This document shows, piece after piece, positions 4,529-29,520 of a DNA stretch of 63,019 bases. The notes beneath the pieces were generated by a model. It saw nothing but the letters and a program-made list of their open reading frames with translations. It did not search any database and had not been told where the DNA came from. A program made the position numbers and the translations under genes. Numbering within the stretch: the first letter of the stretch is position 1; every line of letters starts with the position of its first letter. Source of the stretch: a virus; IMG/VR virus record IMGVR_UViG_3300037089_000131; one strand, 5' to 3'.

Positions 4529-4975
4529 CAAGTTGCCCGTCCCCTGTCGGCTTATAGGACCTGGTCGCCCAGGGGTCCGAATTCAACGGCAGGAGACAAA
4601 AGGCGGCTCTTTTTGGAAAGCTGCGAGCCTCATAAACTCCAGTGTCCGTTCGACTCGGATGGGGTCGCCTTTATGGGTAATCCAAGGAGGATTCGATGTT
4701 TAATGTCATAAAATCGGGAAGATACACAGCCAAAGAAACGGAAATATTTTGATGGGTCATTCTTGATTTAGACTCTAACATCGGACCACCTTATATGATA
4801 GTGGCGTCCAGAACCCTGTTACAAGGCGGTAGGCTTGTTGAATGGGCGGACGACGTACATTGTGTAAAAAGTGGGTCTGACTCCAATACTGATTAACATG
4901 GGTCTAAAGTTTGTCGGCGGGTAGCCTGACCAAAACACTACCCTGACCAATAATTTGACTTTTCATAGCTTTGGT

Positions 4976-5551
4976 ATGAAAAGTCAAATGGTAGGTGGGG
5001 TAAAAGTAAGACTTCCGCATATCTGCAAAAAGTGTGGACAGGCTCTAGCCGAAGATGGCAGTAACTTTCATACACGATGGAGCAGTGGGAAGAGATATTA
5101 CCGGTTCTTATGCCGCCCCTGCTTTAATAAACACGATAAGCAATCTAAACCTCGGTGTGGAAGGACCGAGGGAGGCTATGCACGAAGAAACCAGACCATA
5201 AATAGCCGAAGACACGCTAATGATGAAAGACCAATCATTAAGGACTGTAGGGCATCGGATAGACGGCATGGCCTTTCCTGCGACATTGACAGAGACTACG
5301 TGGAACTTTTGATTTCAACCGGCTGCCAGTATTGCGGGGCGACCCGAGAGGACTTGCATATTGGGCTAGACCGGATGGACAATGCACAAGGTCATCTGAA
5401 AAAGAACGTGGCTCCATGTTGCACAAGGTGTAATTTAGTCCGTGGAGGAATGCCCTACAAGGCATGGCTTATCGTCGCTGAGGCGATGCGAAAGGCTAGG
5501 GAATTAGGGTTATTTGGTGAGTGGGTCCCCGGAAACAAAAGTAGGCTGTAA
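4976..5551 (+). CDS. HNH homing endonuclease
   Basis: C-terminal HNH motif CQYCG...HIGLDRMDNAQGH...CCTRCNLVRG with two Zn-binding CxxC pairs. The track ORF starts at TTG 4955; the first ATG is 4976 and lies inside a perfect palindrome. The gene sits in an AT-rich island. Confidence 0.7.
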   Translation: MKSQMVGGVKVRLPHICKKCGQALAEDGSNFHTRWSSGKRYYRFLCRPCFNKHDKQSKPRCGRTEGGYARRNQTINSRRHANDERPIIKDCRASDRRHGLSCDIDRDYVELLISTGCQYCGATREDLHIGLDRMDNAQGHLKKNVAPCCTRCNLVRGGMPYKAWLIVAEAMRKARELGLFGEWVPGNKSRL

Positions 5552-5560
5552 TCAAGTTAT

Positions 5561-5727
5561 CGGTAAGTAGCTCAGTGGAAAAACTTTGAATCGAAGATGC
5601 TGGCCAGCGTTATAGATTCAGAGACACTTTTGGAATTAGGACAAGTGGCCATAGTTCTAGTTTTGAAAGGAGAGCACCTTCATTACATGGAGGAGGTCGG
5701 GCGGTTCGATTCCCCCCTTACTGACCA
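5561..5727 (+). tRNA. tRNA-Val(TAC)-like gene interrupted by a ~95-nt insertion in the D-loop (possible pseudogene or unusual intron)
   Basis: Acceptor CGGTAAG/CTTACTG; TAGCTCAGTGG D-arm start; after the insertion come AGAGC, anticodon stem CCTTC/GGAGG with loop ATTACAT, a GGTTCGATTCC T-arm, discriminator A and encoded CCA followed by the AGTTT trailer seen on the other tRNAs. Confidence 0.35.
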
Positions 5728-5746
5728 AGTTTCAAAGGAAACAAAT

Positions 5747-5965
5747 ATGGTAAGGCTCTACAGGAACGGCAAACGGCTGGAACGCTGGAGAACTCGGGAA
5801 GGGTATGTCTACGTCCTGCTTGAAAATGGAAAGGTCCTCTTTGGCGGAGGACGAAAAGGCATGTATAGTCATCGCTATCAAGTCAGCGAGTTCGGATGCC
5901 ATGCCAACCTTGAGCAGGTAAGGGTTGAATTGAAAAAAAAGGGCTGCGTAAAGGAACGAGGATGA
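5747..5965 (+). CDS. small HNH_3/NUMOD4-like homing endonuclease-like protein
   Basis: MVRLYRNGKRLERWRTREGYVYVLLENGKVLFGG...HRYQVSEFG matches the G..L....GY.YV.L..NGK....HR pattern of HNH_3 proteins; AAGGAAA RBS; lies immediately after the tRNA-like element. Confidence 0.5.
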   Translation: MVRLYRNGKRLERWRTREGYVYVLLENGKVLFGGGRKGMYSHRYQVSEFGCHANLEQVRVELKKKGCVKERG

Positions 5966-6384
5966 TACCTTTCGGCAAGATTTTCCAAATCCGCTGGAAG
6001 GAAGCCATGGGTCGCCCTGAGTGCCCCTACCTTTACCGCTGGATGGTCATCATCTTCGGGTTCTCCATCCGCCTGCACCACTGGCTTCGGTCGGACGACG
6101 ACCGTCACTTCCACGACCACGCCTCTGACTTCATCTCTATCGTGCTCAAGGGGAAATACCAGAATGTGACGCCCAATGGAACGATTGAGGTTAAGGCCGG
6201 GACGGTATGGAAGTCAAATGCACTTAAACGGCACTACTTGCTTGTACCCAAGGAGGGTGCCTGGACGATATTACTTTGCGGCCGCCCCTACCATAAGTGG
6301 GGATTCTATGTCAACGACCACAAATGGCGTCCGCTTCGTTACTTCTCCAAGTTCGGAATCATTCAAGACGAGAACTATCAGTGA
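5962..6384 (+). CDS. hypothetical protein
   Basis: 140-aa ORF with His/Asp-rich segment HHWLRSDDDRHFHDH. Confidence 0.45.
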   Translation: MIPFGKIFQIRWKEAMGRPECPYLYRWMVIIFGFSIRLHHWLRSDDDRHFHDHASDFISIVLKGKYQNVTPNGTIEVKAGTVWKSNALKRHYLLVPKEGAWTILLCGRPYHKWGFYVNDHKWRPLRYFSKFGIIQDENYQ

Positions 6385-6390
6385 GGTCCT

Positions 6391-6708
6391 ATGCCAAAAA
6401 AAATCAGGATGCTGTCCCCTGTGGTATGCACGCACTGCGGGGCAATCTACGACTTGAGCGCCGTGGTGCCTATCTGCCGCTATGCCGACTGCACGACCTT
6501 CAAGACTCCCTGCTGCAACTGCTTTGCCGACGATAGGAAGTGGAAGAGCCTGCCGGACATCCGTCCTGTACTGAAAACATACCAGTGCGTAATATCCGAT
6601 GGCACTGTATTCCGCAGTATGGACAACCAAGGACGCATCAGGAGCATAAAGCTTATAGACCCCGACCCTGACGGCTCGAAGTATTCCTCCTCGGACGACC
6701 CTGAGTGA
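6391..6708 (+). CDS. hypothetical Cys-rich (Zn-binding) protein
   Basis: CTHCG...CRYADC...CCNC cysteine clusters. Confidence 0.4.
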   Translation: MPKKIRMLSPVVCTHCGAIYDLSAVVPICRYADCTTFKTPCCNCFADDRKWKSLPDIRPVLKTYQCVISDGTVFRSMDNQGRIRSIKLIDPDPDGSKYSSSDDPE

Positions 6709-6733
6709 TGTATAATATAGATGGGAGACTACC

Positions 6734-6952
6734 ATGAAGCTTGTTCCTTATGTCATAGGAGAATGCCTTCTTTGCAAGAAGTTTGTCACAGGACATCTCC
6801 TGCGGGGCAGGCAGCCAGAACCCCGCTTCTACACCAAGGGGGTTATCGTGGTCAGCCCCAGAGGCTCCCGCCATCTCGTCCAGTATCCGATTGACGCCAT
6901 GCATCGAGGTGTACAGGTAAGACCACGGGGCGTCAACTGTCGGAAAAGGTAA
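6734..6952 (+). CDS. hypothetical protein
   Basis: 72-aa ORF. Confidence 0.3.
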   Translation: MKLVPYVIGECLLCKKFVTGHLLRGRQPEPRFYTKGVIVVSPRGSRHLVQYPIDAMHRGVQVRPRGVNCRKR

Positions 6953-6960
6953 AGGACACT

Positions 6961-8058
6961 ATGCAAGATTCAAAGGAAAAGGCATCGTTCACGGAGCAGT
7001 ACTTCGATTACAGCGGCGGCAGGGAGAACGCCCCCTTGCTCACCGTCATGGTCGGTCCTGCGGGCTCGGGCAAGAGCACCATCGCCAAGAGTGTGGTGAA
7101 TTGGGCTGCGGGCAAGACCGTGCGGCTGAACCGTGATACCCTTCGGGCTATGCTGTTTGCCGACTCCCCATGGAACCATGCGAAGGAAGATGTGGTTCGC
7201 AAGTACGAGGAAGAGGGCATTCGCTCGTTCCTTGGCATGGGTCTGAACGTCATCGTGGACGACACCAATTGCGTGCCCAGGACCCGCCAGAAGCTTGAGG
7301 AGATTGCCCGTGGGGCAAGGGTCAAGTTCTGCCTGACGGTCATGAACATCGACAAGGAAGAGTGTTTGCGGCGGAACGCCCTACGCACCGGCAAGGAGGT
7401 CGTCCCCGAGGAAGCCATCGACCAGCACTTCAAGCGGCTCCGGGAGAAGACCGTGCGGCCGTTCGGCTACGGGATGGAGGAATCCAACCGGGCACTGGAG
7501 GACTGGAGCGAGCTTAACGCCACCATCGCCGGGGGCAGGGACTTCCACGAGCGCCTTCCGGGCGCACCGTGGGTATTCTGCGACGTGGACGGCACGCTGG
7601 CGGAGAACGAGGGCGAGAGGAACCAGTTCGACGAGACCAAGGTGCTTCTGGACTCCTGCCGGGAGCCGGTGGCGGCATGGCTCCGGGGGCTGTACTCGAC
7701 CCATAACATCTGCATCCTCTCCGGTCGGCACGATACCTGCTGCAAGGACTCATGCGACTGGTTCGAGATGTACAAGATTCCCTTTGACATGTTCCTGATG
7801 CGGGGAGCGACGAACTTCGAGCACGACTACATCGTCAAGCGCAAGATTATGGAGACGGTCCTCCGGGTAATCCCCAAGGAGCGCATCGCCTTCATGGTTG
7901 ACGACCGCCCGCAGGTCTGCCGGATGTGGAAGAACGAGCTTGGACTCAAGGTCTACCCGGTCGGGGGAACCACCGACCATGGGGCGACCTGCACCTTCGT
8001 CCCCGAGAAGAAGGGCTGGAAGCACTGCCCGCAATGCGGGGCGCTGGAGGACTTCTGA
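6961..8058 (+). CDS. pnk: polynucleotide 5'-kinase/3'-phosphatase (T4 Pnkp-like)
   Basis: N-terminal P-loop GPAGSGKST followed by a C-terminal HAD-type DxDGT motif (FCDVDGTLAE); same domain order as T4 PseT. Confidence 0.8.
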   Translation: MQDSKEKASFTEQYFDYSGGRENAPLLTVMVGPAGSGKSTIAKSVVNWAAGKTVRLNRDTLRAMLFADSPWNHAKEDVVRKYEEEGIRSFLGMGLNVIVDDTNCVPRTRQKLEEIARGARVKFCLTVMNIDKEECLRRNALRTGKEVVPEEAIDQHFKRLREKTVRPFGYGMEESNRALEDWSELNATIAGGRDFHERLPGAPWVFCDVDGTLAENEGERNQFDETKVLLDSCREPVAAWLRGLYSTHNICILSGRHDTCCKDSCDWFEMYKIPFDMFLMRGATNFEHDYIVKRKIMETVLRVIPKERIAFMVDDRPQVCRMWKNELGLKVYPVGGTTDHGATCTFVPEKKGWKHCPQCGALEDF

Positions 8059-9141: not shown

Positions 9142-9399
9142 ATGAAGCCAAAGTTTAACATCCTGCACCGGGACTATCTCAAGCAGGCGATACCGACCTT
9201 CATGAACCAGTGCGAGGGCGGTTCCTGCGGTTGCACGGGCAAGGATATCAAGCCTCCAGACTCCTTCGAGCTTGGGGCGCTGGCGGTAATGCAGGGGCTA
9301 GACGACATCCATTACGCACCCTATCACCACCTGACCAAGGTGGACGTGCTCAGGGCAATTCAGAAGCGGTGCCAATTCCTCATCGACCTGGAGAAATAA
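9142..9399 (+). CDS. hypothetical protein
   Basis: Internal ATG (MKPKFNILH) after the previous stop with an AGGG RBS; CEGGSCGC motif. Confidence 0.4.
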   Translation: MKPKFNILHRDYLKQAIPTFMNQCEGGSCGCTGKDIKPPDSFELGALAVMQGLDDIHYAPYHHLTKVDVLRAIQKRCQFLIDLEK

Positions 9400-10667
9400 T
9401 GAAGCTGGAAAACCTGCTGAACATCGACAACCTTAACCGTCTGGTGACGGAGAGGTACATCGCCGTGCGCAAGCACCCGAGTCTGCCCCTGCGCATCTAC
9501 AACTACACCAGCGAGTGCATGTTCAAGAACATGTGGCCATATGAGGTCTGCGTCTGCCGGGGTCTCATCGTGGACGACAAGGACAACATCGTCAGCCGCC
9601 CCATCCCGAAGTTCTTCAACCTCGGGCAGTCAGGACCCTACATATTCCGCAACGCCCAAGGAAACTTGGAGGTTCGGGACGAGGTGTTTAGCGACCGCTT
9701 TCTCGTTGAGACATCGGAGTTCCTGCATGCCCCGCTCTCCATCACCCGCAAGCTGGACGGATGGGCGGGGATATCGTGGAACTACGAGGACAAGTGGGGG
9801 GTCGCCAGCCGTGGCTCCTTTGACTCGCCGGGGGCGCTCTATGCCACGGAGAAGTTCCAGAAGTTCGTCAAGTACACGGCAGTGGAGTTCATCCCCAAGG
9901 ACACTACCCTCTTCTTCGAGATAATCTCCAAGGAGACAAGGGTCGTCGTCCCCTATGACTTCGAGGGGTTGGTGCTCATCGCCGCCATCGACAACGACAC
10001 CGGGGAGGAGATGCGGCGGTCAGGCGTCGAGGCTCTCTACAAGGAAATCAACCAGTATGCCAAGGAACGCCCGTGGTGCCGGTTGGTGGAAGACTTCCCT
10101 ATGCGCTCGCTCGCCAAGTGCATGACGGACGACAGCATGACCGAGGAAGGGTATGTCGTCGCCATCCACCGGAATGGGCTTCCCCCTGTCCGGTCAAAGA
10201 TAAAGCTTGCCGAGTATTGCAGGCTGCATCGCATCCTGTGCGGCGTGACCCCGCAGAAGATTTGGCTGGAGCTTGCCGACCCGATGTCGTCTTGGGTCAA
10301 CCATGGCAGCAAGAAGGACTGGAAGACCGGCGAAATCAAGCATGACATGCAAATCCCGAGGGAGTTCGCCGACTGGGTGCTCGACTGGCACAAGCGCATA
10401 ACCGAGAGCTTCCACCAGAATCTTGTGGACGCCCTGCGTGTCGAGAAGGCGTTCGCCGACATGCGAACCGACGAGATGGCATGGAAGGAAATACAGGACA
10501 ACTGGGAGTATCTCAGGACAGCCGGTGGCTACTCCAAGGAAATCGTTAAGGTCGCCTCCAAGCTACATGGCGGCAAGGTGACGGAGGCATATGCCGACCT
10601 TTGGAACCTGGTGCGGCCGTTCGGCAGGGAGGAAGCTGCATTCTATTCGGAAGGGCAGGGTGAATGA
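9399..10667 (+). CDS. rnlA: RNA ligase (T4 RnlA/Rnl1-like)
   Basis: N-terminus YNYTSECMFKNMWPYEVCVCRGLIVDDKDNIVSRPIPKFFNL parallels T4 Rnl1 ([23 protein letters not shown]...ASRPMEKFFNL); nucleotidyltransferase motif I KLDG; TAATG overlap with the upstream stop. Confidence 0.8.
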   Translation: MKLENLLNIDNLNRLVTERYIAVRKHPSLPLRIYNYTSECMFKNMWPYEVCVCRGLIVDDKDNIVSRPIPKFFNLGQSGPYIFRNAQGNLEVRDEVFSDRFLVETSEFLHAPLSITRKLDGWAGISWNYEDKWGVASRGSFDSPGALYATEKFQKFVKYTAVEFIPKDTTLFFEIISKETRVVVPYDFEGLVLIAAIDNDTGEEMRRSGVEALYKEINQYAKERPWCRLVEDFPMRSLAKCMTDDSMTEEGYVVAIHRNGLPPVRSKIKLAEYCRLHRILCGVTPQKIWLELADPMSSWVNHGSKKDWKTGEIKHDMQIPREFADWVLDWHKRITESFHQNLVDALRVEKAFADMRTDEMAWKEIQDNWEYLRTAGGYSKEIVKVASKLHGGKVTEAYADLWNLVRPFGREEAAFYSEGQGE

Positions 10668-11335: not shown

Positions 11336-12517
11336 ATGTCGCATTTTTCCGTGCTGGTCATTGGTCCTGATGCCGAGAGGCAGCTTGCCCCCTACCATGA
11401 GTTCGAGTGTACCGGGAGGGACGACGAGTTCGTCAAGAGTGTCGATATCACGGAGGAGGCAAGGGAGCAGTATGCCTCCGACATGACCACCTACTACCAA
11501 GACCCCGAAGGAAATCTGCACTCGATGTTCATCGGGGGAGACTGGGACCCGCAGTTCTTCCGTGACCCCACCCCCGAGGAGATGGAAAAGCACAAGATGG
11601 GGGAGGTTGACCTAAGCAGCAGCGGGGCGGCAGACGGAATCGAGTGGTACAAGAAGGACTGGGGGGACGGGCGGGGCTACCGGGCAAAGGTAAAGTCCCT
11701 GCCGGAAGGCTGGAAGGAGGTCAAGGCCAATACCAACCTCATGGAAACCTTTGCCGAATGGGTCGAGGGCTACTACGGAACCACGGTCGTGCCGTTCGGG
11801 CAGGCTCCCGACCTGCACAAGACCCACAAGTACGGCTACATCCTCGTGGACGAGGCGGGGAATGTCATCAGGATTATCGACCGCACCAACCCCAACGCAC
11901 ACTGGGACTGGTTTCAGGTCGGCGGCAGGTGGAACGGCTTCTTCAAGCTCAAGCCGCAGACGAAGCACATGACAGCATTGGGAAGACCGGGTCTACAGAC
12001 CATGAACCACGACTACAAGCCCCCCGAGCGTGGACGGGCCGATGTGTGCCGCAAGGGGGATATCGACATCGACGGCATGCGGAACGAGGTCGGGGAAAGG
12101 GCTGCCGGGGAGTACGACAAGTACACAGCCATGACTGGCGGATGCTCATTGTTCATCACATGGAAAGAGACGCAGGAAAAAAACACGGTGGACGGAAAAG
12201 TGGACTGGGAGAAGGCCCGCACGGAATACAACGACCAGCCTGTCGTGAAGGCGCTCCGTGCCGACCGTGATGCCATGTGGTGGGACCTCGAAGACTTCCA
12301 GTGCAGCCGTGAGGAGTACATCGAGCATGCCCGTGCAGGGGCTTTGAGGACGTTTGCAGTCGTGAAGGACAGCCTGTGGTTTGAGCGTGGGCGCATGGGC
12401 TGGTGGGGATGCGTACACGACGAGAAGGATGACAACGAGTGGACCAAGCAGTTCTCGGAACTCATCGACTCATTGCCGGACGACACCCTGCTCACCGTGG
12501 CGGACTGCCACATCTAG
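11336..12517 (+). CDS. hypothetical protein
   Basis: 393-aa ORF with AAGGAGG RBS; no motif recognised. Confidence 0.5.
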   Translation: MSHFSVLVIGPDAERQLAPYHEFECTGRDDEFVKSVDITEEAREQYASDMTTYYQDPEGNLHSMFIGGDWDPQFFRDPTPEEMEKHKMGEVDLSSSGAADGIEWYKKDWGDGRGYRAKVKSLPEGWKEVKANTNLMETFAEWVEGYYGTTVVPFGQAPDLHKTHKYGYILVDEAGNVIRIIDRTNPNAHWDWFQVGGRWNGFFKLKPQTKHMTALGRPGLQTMNHDYKPPERGRADVCRKGDIDIDGMRNEVGERAAGEYDKYTAMTGGCSLFITWKETQEKNTVDGKVDWEKARTEYNDQPVVKALRADRDAMWWDLEDFQCSREEYIEHARAGALRTFAVVKDSLWFERGRMGWWGCVHDEKDDNEWTKQFSELIDSLPDDTLLTVADCHI

Positions 12518-28384: not shown

Positions 28385-28590
28385 TGGCCGAAGCACCATC
28401 AGGCTGGACAAGGGTAAGGAACGCCATCCTCAAGGGGATGAAGGCAGCACAGGCAGAAGTGAAGGAGGGCGTGTGCGGCTACAGCGAGCCTTGGCATATC
28501 GAACACGCCCTGCTTGAAGCCGGACTGCTTACCCCGGAGGCGGAAGAGGTCATCGGCTTCATCGGCGTGCCTCCTGACCCCAAGGTCTAG
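28384..28590 (+). CDS. hypothetical protein
   Basis: TAATG junction. Confidence 0.4.
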   Translation: MAEAPSGWTRVRNAILKGMKAAQAEVKEGVCGYSEPWHIEHALLEAGLLTPEAEEVIGFIGVPPDPKV

Positions 28591-29402
28591 CTCCACACTG
28601 GTCCGAGGTGGCACATGTGGCAGTCGGACACATAGGGTCCGTTGCCGCTCGGGTCAATCCCGTTCAGGTAGCCATAGGGCATGAAGCAGTTCCCGTTGTT
28701 CCCCCAAGAACCCCAGCTATTGCGGATGCACAGAGCGCCGGGAGGCAAGCCGGGGAAGGCGAATTTGTCGTTGTACCCCCAGACACACCCCGCATGGCCA
28801 CCGAGAAGCTGCTCGGTCTTGGTCGGCATCGTCATGATGCCGTTTGCGGCCACTGATGCGGTCTCAAAGGATTCATAAACGAGGAACCCAAGCTCGAACA
28901 CGAAACCTGAGTTGAGGGCGTTCTTCATGTCCAGAAGGGTGTTAAGGGCGTACACCTTCCCGACCTTGTAATGGGCGGCGTCCACGAAGGATTTGGCCGA
29001 GGGGTGGGTGGCGAACGGGGTCGAGTATGGCTCGTCGGCATCGGGGGCGATTCCCCACATCTGCATGGAGACCATGGCGGTGGCCACGGTAGACCCGGCG
29101 TCCTGCGGCACGTCGCCATTGAGCAGGCGCTCGCAATAGTACTGGAACTGGGCGCTCAGGGGCACCGGCTTCTTGACGTACTTGATGCTGAGGAACTCCC
29201 TTGTGTTCTTTGCCCCGAAGGCGGTACAGGAGCCTTCCTGAGCCTGGTCGTAGAGGGGAGGCATCCATTGCAGGAGGCTCACGGAGGCGGGCAGGGGGGT
29301 GCTCATGTCATGATGCAGCGAGTAGGAAGGGTGAACCTTCCTTACCCTGGAATGGGCAAAGCTGTACTTGCGGCCGGTCACCGGGGAGATAGGAACACTC
29401 AT
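28587..29402 (-). CDS. papain-like (C1 family) cysteine peptidase
   Basis: Catalytic QEGSCTAFG (Q...C), LGGHAGCVWGY (His) and IRNSWGSWGNNG...PYGY (N-S-W-G); AAGGAGGA RBS; one of only two minus-strand genes. Confidence 0.7.
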   Translation of the reverse strand: MSVPISPVTGRKYSFAHSRVRKVHPSYSLHHDMSTPLPASVSLLQWMPPLYDQAQEGSCTAFGAKNTREFLSIKYVKKPVPLSAQFQYYCERLLNGDVPQDAGSTVATAMVSMQMWGIAPDADEPYSTPFATHPSAKSFVDAAHYKVGKVYALNTLLDMKNALNSGFVFELGFLVYESFETASVAANGIMTMPTKTEQLLGGHAGCVWGYNDKFAFPGLPPGALCIRNSWGSWGNNGNCFMPYGYLNGIDPSGNGPYVSDCHMCHLGPVWS

Positions 29403-29520
29403 GTATCCTCCTTGGGATGGGGGTTAGTTTCCCTCATATAGGAGGGCGGTAGTCTGGCCAGAAAAGTTTTTCCCAAATCCGCCGATATCCGGTGTATTAT
29501 ATAGCTGACAGGCTAGTGAA

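Follow-up and report, generated by a model that had tools for sequence, protein, structure and literature searches.

Within the 63,019-nucleotide stretch of viral DNA held as IMG/VR record IMGVR_UViG_3300037089_000131 (all of it analysed here, and hereafter called the window), a minus-strand gene at positions 28587–29402 encodes an active-site-complete, xylellain-type short C1A cysteine endopeptidase, whose activity is predicted from its sequence and from a structural model. We propose, with about even confidence, that this enzyme is a cytoplasmic, zymogen-like accessory protease that acts on proteins in the infected cell. The proposal is based on the cytoplasmic features of the protein, its apparently separate and regulated transcription, its place in a variable accessory island and the strong purifying selection on its gene.

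Catalytic identity of the peptidase

The open reading frame (ORF) named in the original prediction, which had been made from the DNA letters without database searches, proved exact in its coordinates and specifies 271 amino acids. Its assignment to the papain-like C1 peptidases, with all catalytic elements in place, is borne out by Pfam, by alignment to papain, by the predicted structure and by residue conservation. The Pfam search that had been proposed as a check matched PF00112 (Peptidase_C1) to residues 49–240 with 33.8 bits (E=4.7e-8), above the gathering cutoff of 20.7 bits. The protein also matched PHROG 16701, labelled ‘peptidase’, while NCBIfam gave no match for it and PADLOC gave none for it or its neighbours. 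The closest solved structure by sequence is xylellain of Xylella fastidiosa (PDB 3ois), matched over residues 27–248 with E=2e-19. A profile of 88 homologues aligned to mature papain in hhalign with 98.8% probability, pairing Gln53, Cys59, His203, Asn228 and Trp230 with papain Gln19, Cys25, His159, Asn175 and Trp177. All five residues are invariant in both homologue alignments (n=27 and n=88), including the catalytic cysteine and histidine on whose conservation the call hinged. The motifs QEGSC59TAFG, LGGH203AGCVWGY and N228-S-W-G were confirmed in the protein.

An AlphaFold2 model built from the 88-sequence alignment has a predicted local distance difference test score (pLDDT) of 94 and a predicted template-modelling score (pTM) of 0.92. 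In a Foldseek comparison, the top PDB match of this model was again 3ois (template-modelling score (TM) 0.82, root-mean-square deviation 2.7, 26% identity over the structural alignment), followed by cathepsins V, S, K and B with TM 0.6–0.7. All of these matches have a probability of 1.00.

The gene is under strong purifying selection, with pairwise ratios of nonsynonymous to synonymous substitution (dN/dS) of 0.07–0.22 against three orthologues. Because of these ratios, and because orthologues with 71–78% identity occupy the same position on independent contigs of 126–317 kb, we regard it as a real, intact gene. A plus-strand ORF that overlaps it (28971–29441, 156 amino acids) is unsupported; we regard it as a shadow ORF, the region being GC-rich.

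A conserved N-terminal extension and cytoplasmic features

The peptidase shares its catalytic machinery and two-lobe fold with papain, cathepsins L, S, K and B and the baculovirus enzyme V-cath (TM 0.6–0.7), whereas the signal peptide, the long I29-type propeptide and the three conserved disulfides of those enzymes are all absent. No signal peptide or transmembrane segment was found in the protein: the maximum Kyte–Doolittle hydropathy over 19 residues is 1.08 and the N-terminus is not hydrophobic, in agreement with the earlier statement that there is no secretion signal. Pfam detected no I29 propeptide. Papain's disulfide-forming cysteines are lacking; papain Cys22, for example, aligns in hhalign to Glu56. 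Together, these three features point to a cytoplasmic enzyme.

The companion statement, that the protein has no pro-region, stands for a long propeptide of the I29 type but not for the segment ahead of papain's mature N-terminus, where a conserved extension of 36 residues is found. Its S-P-x-G-R-x-Y motif is kept across the family, cellular members included, and Tyr13 is invariant in the close clade. Residues 1–30 are modelled as ordered, with AlphaFold2 pLDDT values of 76–89. In the xylellain structure, described by Leite et al. in 2013, part of the N-terminal sequence reportedly blocks the active site. By analogy, the 36-residue segment is a candidate short auto-inhibitory pro-segment.

With one C1 domain in 271 residues, the protein lies within the ~250–290 residues of xylellain-type short C1A peptidases, and xylellain is its nearest characterised relative. 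Xylellain resembles the phage enzyme further in being a short single domain of ~270–290 residues, in having a short N-terminal extension that replaces the I29 propeptide and in using the same catalytic Gln, Cys, His and Asn. The two proteins nevertheless share only the 26% identity given above. In the phage clade, the N-terminal sequence differs from that of xylellain and the C-terminal tail (…DPSGNGPYVSDCHMCHLGPVWS) is distinctive. The xylellain gene, moreover, is chromosomal and comes from a plant pathogen, whereas the gene described here belongs to a phage.

A candidate promoter private to the peptidase gene

The repeat-containing region from which the gene was said to be divergently transcribed is real: two exact copies of a 17-nt box, CGTGTCCCGGAAACGTC, lie 60 bp apart, against 0.17 expected by chance. 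When the upstream region was aligned with those of the orthologous loci L001, L003 and L008, the CCCGGAAACGTC core of the box, the spacing and a TATAAT hexamer were all found to be kept. We considered the box as a general phage promoter motif and rejected this, since within the 63-kb window the exact core is confined to the peptidase upstream locus and is missing upstream of the gene for a Major Vault Protein (MVP) homologue. The conserved elements instead suggest a private promoter with a good −10 hexamer, in which a regulator box would replace the −35 element and a second box would lie on the same helical face (Table 1). A scan of the intergenic region with Rfam returned nothing; its matches in the window are tRNAs only.

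At the other end of the gene, a plus-strand ORF of 68 amino acids converges on the peptidase gene, and an identical convergent stop overlap is present in L001. Their stop codons overlap (CTAG), so that a terminator could not fit between them. The first strong plus-strand terminator downstream is a hairpin at 29739–29766, placed beyond the peptidase promoter. Transcripts of the plus-strand operon may therefore extend antisense through the peptidase gene. Such transcription may separate the timing of the peptidase from that of its neighbours, and the hairpin could end the read-through. Alternatively, the hairpin could mark the 3′ end of a small RNA; the intergenic segment 29600–29740 adjoins it.

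Table 1. The peptidase gene, its candidate control elements and flanking genes, in window coordinates
Feature	Position	Strand	Basis
Peptidase coding sequence, 271 aa plus stop	28587..29402	−	ORF translation; stop codon 28587–28589
N-terminal extension, codons 1–36, before the papain-like mature domain	29295..29402	−	Leu37-Pro38 on papain Ile1-Pro2 (hhalign)
Gln53 codon, oxyanion-hole Gln (papain Gln19)	29244..29246	−	Papain alignment and homologue conservation
Cys59 codon, catalytic nucleophile (papain Cys25)	29226..29228	−	Papain alignment and homologue conservation
His203 codon, catalytic base (papain His159)	28794..28796	−	Papain alignment and homologue conservation
Asn228-Ser229-Trp230 codons (papain Asn175-Ser176-Trp177)	28713..28721	−	Papain alignment and homologue conservation
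Ribosome-binding site AGGAGG, 4 nt before ATG	29407..29412	−	Sequence
TATAAT, −10-like hexamer of the candidate peptidase promoter	29496..29501	−	Kept upstream of orthologues L001, L003 and L008
Proximal 17-nt box, candidate regulator-binding site	29521..29537	−	Exact repeat; 19 nt upstream of TATAAT, overlaps the −35 position
Distal 17-nt box, second copy	29581..29597	−	Exact repeat, 60 bp upstream of the proximal box
Intrinsic-terminator-like hairpin, 12-bp stem with 8 G-C pairs, T-run	29739..29776	+	Strong; between the control region and the next plus-strand gene
Convergent ORF, 68 aa	28384..28590	+	Stop overlaps the peptidase stop (CTAG)
HK97-fold-like ORF, 345 aa, divergent neighbour	29808..30845	+	PHROG 2522 at 2e-6; NCBIfam HK97-fold major capsid model NF042927 end to end, 1.6e-5, below cutoff
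MVP homologue, 823 aa	33461..35932	−	Pfam MVP_shoulder 1.5e-23, Vault_3 7e-11

Proposed role in the infected cell

As we picture it, the peptidase would be synthesised in the host cytoplasm during infection as a precursor that inhibits itself, the 36-residue segment lying in the active-site cleft as is reported for xylellain. Its gene would form a separate transcription unit, read from a promoter that depends on a regulator and counter to the surrounding plus-strand operons, with its timing set separately. Once activated, the enzyme would cut at least one protein within the infected cell. The likeliest targets are those of the host, and their cleavage could serve takeover, counter-defence or the recycling of host protein. 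The gene sits in a variable accessory island inside a region of nucleic-acid- and translation-related functions. Among the roles first offered for it (a host-directed effector, a maturation protease, or a lysis or defence-related gene), the host-directed intracellular one is our best guess, whereas action as a capsid-maturation protease or as the main endolysin is unlikely.

A more specific version, in which this phage-specific peptidase clade serves as a dedicated effector inside the cell, gated by a regulator, aimed at a defined host protein and possibly linked to the neighbouring MVP homologue, we regard as quite unlikely. If true, it would reveal a class of phage proteases for takeover or counter-defence that has so far gone unrecognised, directed for example at a defence, translation or envelope factor. 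A true link to MVP could make the peptidase, for example, the cargo or the processor of a phage-built vault-like compartment.

Several observations weigh against an intracellular accessory role. The promoter and operator assignment comes from sequence conservation only. Alicyclobacillus phage MMB025 fuses a related C1 domain to glycoside-hydrolase-like and peptidoglycan-binding domains, distant structural relatives in BFVD are lysin-like, and an M15-like peptidase is encoded 3–4 genes away in four viral lineages; a cell-envelope target is therefore possible. Six prophage-like loci of Terriglobia place a homologue between terminase-like and portal-like genes, and two viral homologues have tail-fibre-like or lectin-like N-terminal extensions, so that some family members may be virion-associated. 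Finally, even the substrate of xylellain is unknown (PMC12090721); no function can therefore be transferred from it, and the role of the present peptidase is one that we infer.

As a lysis or cell-envelope enzyme, the peptidase would be an endolysin or an accessory lysis factor, released to the periplasm by a holin late in infection and cutting peptidoglycan stem peptides or envelope proteins such as a lipoprotein tether. We consider this unlikely, and a part in canonical lysis is disfavoured. The MMB025 protein, CDS0095 (‘endolysin’, 753 amino acids), has an N-terminal C1 domain homologous to the window protein (32% identity over query residues 49–214), joined to Big_1, an Rv2525c glycoside-hydrolase-like domain and PG_binding_1. 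It belongs to a phage of a Gram-positive host and lies in a lysis-type position after tail-fibre genes, whereas none of this applies to the window protein, which matched PF00112 and PHROG 16701 only and has no recognised peptidoglycan-hydrolase or cell-wall-binding domain. The BFVD matches in question, phage proteins named ‘Peptidoglycan binding-like’ and ‘N-acetylmuramidase’, are 16–17% identical. Fusions to cell-wall modules lend lysis only indirect support; they occur in a few Gram-positive phages, in proteins 16–32% identical to the peptidase. Ten long family members that we scanned contain tandem C1 domains, TIG, CarboxypepD_reg and one intein, but no cell-wall modules or cell-wall-binding partners. 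The M15-like peptidase lies within 3–4 genes in L010/11, L020/21, L037 and L062. Across about 70 viral loci, homologues have heterogeneous neighbours, and lysis genes are not enriched among the immediate ones. Likewise, no holin, spanin or other lysis gene is found among the neighbours of the peptidase or elsewhere in the 63-kb window. Many Gram-negative endolysins are, like the peptidase, single-domain proteins without a signal peptide; to our knowledge, however, C1A enzymes form no recognised class of peptidoglycan hydrolases.

A virion-associated or morphogenetic protease would process capsid or virion proteins, possibly the product of the adjacent HK97-fold gene, or would be packaged and ejected; we judge this very unlikely. 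The divergent neighbour of the peptidase is indeed HK97-fold-like, but a link between the two genes was rejected because the HK97-fold gene is unique to the window and absent from L001, L003–L005 and L008–L009, all of which keep the peptidase. The remainder of the window is entirely non-structural, and on both grounds the capsid-maturation role in the original prediction is disfavoured. In the six Terriglobia/Acidobacteria loci (L091, L104, L122, L137, L146 and L156; 33–37% identity, in prophage-like regions), the homologue has a terminase-large-subunit-like gene 3–4 genes upstream and a portal-like gene directly downstream, and the tail-fibre-like or lectin-like extensions belong to the homologues at L063 and L076. 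The same single-domain protein is, however, widespread in cellular genomes without a phage context. The prohead proteases known to us all belong to other families (S78, U9/U35, ClpP-like and assemblin-like), and the present enzyme is set apart from them by its papain-type fold, its non-structural surroundings and its unconserved HK97-like neighbour.

A host-benefit ‘moron’, expressed apart from the lytic programme or released at lysis to degrade external proteins, would fit the counter-orientation, the putative own promoter, the variable island with its lineage-dependent same-strand cargo (MVP or TadE/Tad genes) and the proposal that xylellain-like peptidases of plant-vascular pathogens are secreted virulence factors (PMC12090721), but it is about as improbable as a virion protease, given a protein that lacks a signal peptide, transmembrane segment and disulfide cysteines and a phage that looks large, tRNA-rich and lytic-type, with no integrase seen in the window.

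Distribution and relatives of the peptidase

The original prediction called C1 peptidases uncommon in phages, which is accurate for cultured phages and wrong for metagenomic ones. Only 3 of 50,697 cultured phage records contain a match, namely an uncultured 595-kb phage, MMB025 and the Burkholderia jumbo phage FLC9, whereas relatives of the peptidase are encoded on at least 420 IMG/VR viral contigs. They are also found at at least 463 loci of cellular genomes from many phyla. An exhaustive search returned 8,237 protein clusters (50% identity) at E≤1e-3, 108 of them at E≤1e-30. BFVD shows the peptidase fold in uncultured Caudovirales and in giant viruses, its top matches being a ‘Peptidase_C1 domain containing protein [uncultured Caudovirales phage]’ and proteins of Terrestrivirus and Edafosvirus. 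Because a search of the cultured phages for DNA nearly identical to the 26–34 kb stretch of the window gave no match, the locus has no annotated close relative.

Members of the present clade are 71–78% identical to one another, at most about 50% identical to anything outside it and 35–43% identical to cellular genes, and they form their own 50% cluster. By these identities, the clade is a distinct phage lineage within the xylellain-type family. Xylellain-type C1A peptidases in phages are already known: short bacterial enzymes of this type were horizontally acquired by Myoviridae, Siphoviridae and Mimiviridae (PMC10380794, 2023), and the window protein is an additional member of that catalogued group. 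The catalogued enzymes are of the same class, and the catalogue is phylogenomic, without functional, regulatory or context analysis. What the present study adds is a control region private to the gene and conserved in its relatives, a counter-orientation that this jumbo-phage lineage has kept, and the inteins at the active site of homologues described below.

A counterpart in layout is gp163 of FLC9 (BDD79682.1), a single-domain Peptidase_C1 protein of 263 amino acids (E=1.9e-12) encoded by a 322-kb jumbo phage of a proteobacterium. Like the peptidase gene of the window, the FLC9 gene stands alone in its orientation, with about 18 neighbours running the other way. The two proteins differ in sequence (~29% identity) and setting: the FLC9 gene, annotated as a hypothetical protein, has unrelated neighbours and no MVP gene nearby. 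The lone, counter-oriented layout was rejected as a family-wide trait, as orientation is mixed across the viral loci; it is found in the present clade, in FLC9 and in a few further cases.

Inteins interrupt two of the homologues, each at a site of its own and in both cases at the active site. In P0198, the catalytic cysteine itself serves as the +1 extein residue (…QGDLGA/C…HN/CTAF…); the insertion has a weak HNH_3 match, and its site corresponds to Cys59 of the window protein (29226–29228). In P0009, an insertion with an Intein_splicing match (PF14890) follows GGHAV, three residues past the catalytic histidine, at the site homologous to Cys206 (28785–28787). Inteins in a papain-family protease seem unusual, and their placement at the active site suggests that the phages depend on the enzyme. 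Two other homologues, P0012 and P0021 (~162 amino acids), are 64–66% identical to the N-terminal half of the peptidase and then continue in proline-/arginine-rich sequence; they are probably frameshifted copies, either pseudogenes or assembly errors.

When the literature was searched for C1 or other cysteine proteases of phages whose role is known, nothing relevant came up. Short, signal-less papain-family proteases with unknown substrates are carried by thousands of phage and giant-virus genomes. The locus described here offers a clean test case, with an intact enzyme, its own conserved control region and several sequenced jumbo-phage relatives. Were its target identified, the many viral and bacterial ‘orphan’ proteases of this large family could be assigned a function.

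Genomic setting

The window belongs to a jumbo phage: nearly all of its genes lie on the plus strand in phage-like fashion, and orthologous loci are found on contigs of 126, 219, 238 and 317 kb. The 219- and 317-kb contigs are ERZ25039540 contig_12974 and IMGVR_UViG_3300041809_000571, respectively. A conserved marker protein (11336–12517) matches phages of Proteobacteria only, which suggests a Gram-negative host, probably a proteobacterium. Judged by AT skew, just two protein genes in the 63 kb lie on the minus strand, those for the peptidase and the MVP homologue. The position and counter-orientation of the peptidase are kept in related phages. A nearby same-strand slot holds MVP in L001, L008 and L009 and TadE/Tad (TadG-like) pilus-assembly genes in L003–L005 of the P0004 lineage (~4900–6800 of the locus), a swap that suggests a hot spot for exchangeable cargo genes.

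The MVP homologue is 84–86% identical in L001, L008 and L009 and has no PHROG, NCBIfam or PADLOC match; a single report describes MVPs in phages, namely those of the gut (bioRxiv 10.1101/2023.11.10.566534). Dependence of the peptidase on MVP was considered and rejected, because MVP is confined to these closest relatives and is replaced by the TadE/Tad genes in L003–L005. The product of the HK97-fold-like ORF opens with a Tat-signal-like N-terminus (MERRSFFQAILGGTAAIFGSKLAMA), and the gene, set in a non-structural region, looks like an orphan of capsid or encapsulin type. Apart from it, no lysis or virion gene was found in the window.

To survey neighbours across the family, we covered ±5 genes in 80 viral loci and ±4 genes in 80 cellular loci and scanned 138 immediate neighbours against PHROG. 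No family-wide partner gene emerged from the viral and cellular loci. Recurrent neighbours are lineage-specific only: four viral lineages have the M15-like peptidase, the six Terriglobia prophages have terminase and portal genes, and the Pseudomonas syringae group has xylose genes.

As a whole, the window is an island of translation and nucleotide-metabolism genes such as large phages typically carry. Its nucleic-acid genes encode a polynucleotide kinase/phosphatase, a T4-type RNA ligase, an SNF2 helicase, metallophosphoesterases, a DNA methyltransferase and several homing endonucleases; others encode a nucleoside deoxyribosyltransferase, thymidylate synthase, dCMP deaminase, tRNA-His guanylyltransferase and peptide deformylase. 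Twenty tRNA genes form two arrays, at 31163–33123 and 61546–62733.

Further observations concern these surroundings. The polynucleotide kinase/phosphatase and the RNA ligase, which is of the Rnl1 type, make up a T4-like tRNA-repair set among the plus-strand genes, including those at 6961–8058 and 9210–10667. The tRNA arrays contain multiple Leu, Ser, Tyr, Arg, His and Lys isoacceptors together with duplicates, and an HNH homing-endonuclease gene (32118–32600) lies inside the first array. One tRNA in that array (31405–31489) scores 47.6 against the Rfam tRNA-Sec model, whose gathering threshold is 47, and is called tRNA-Tyr(GTA) by ARAGORN. In the 219-kb relative L001, a 642-residue ART-PolyVal (ADP-ribosyltransferase-like) protein is encoded at 998–2926 of the locus, a few kilobases from the island that holds MVP and the peptidase.

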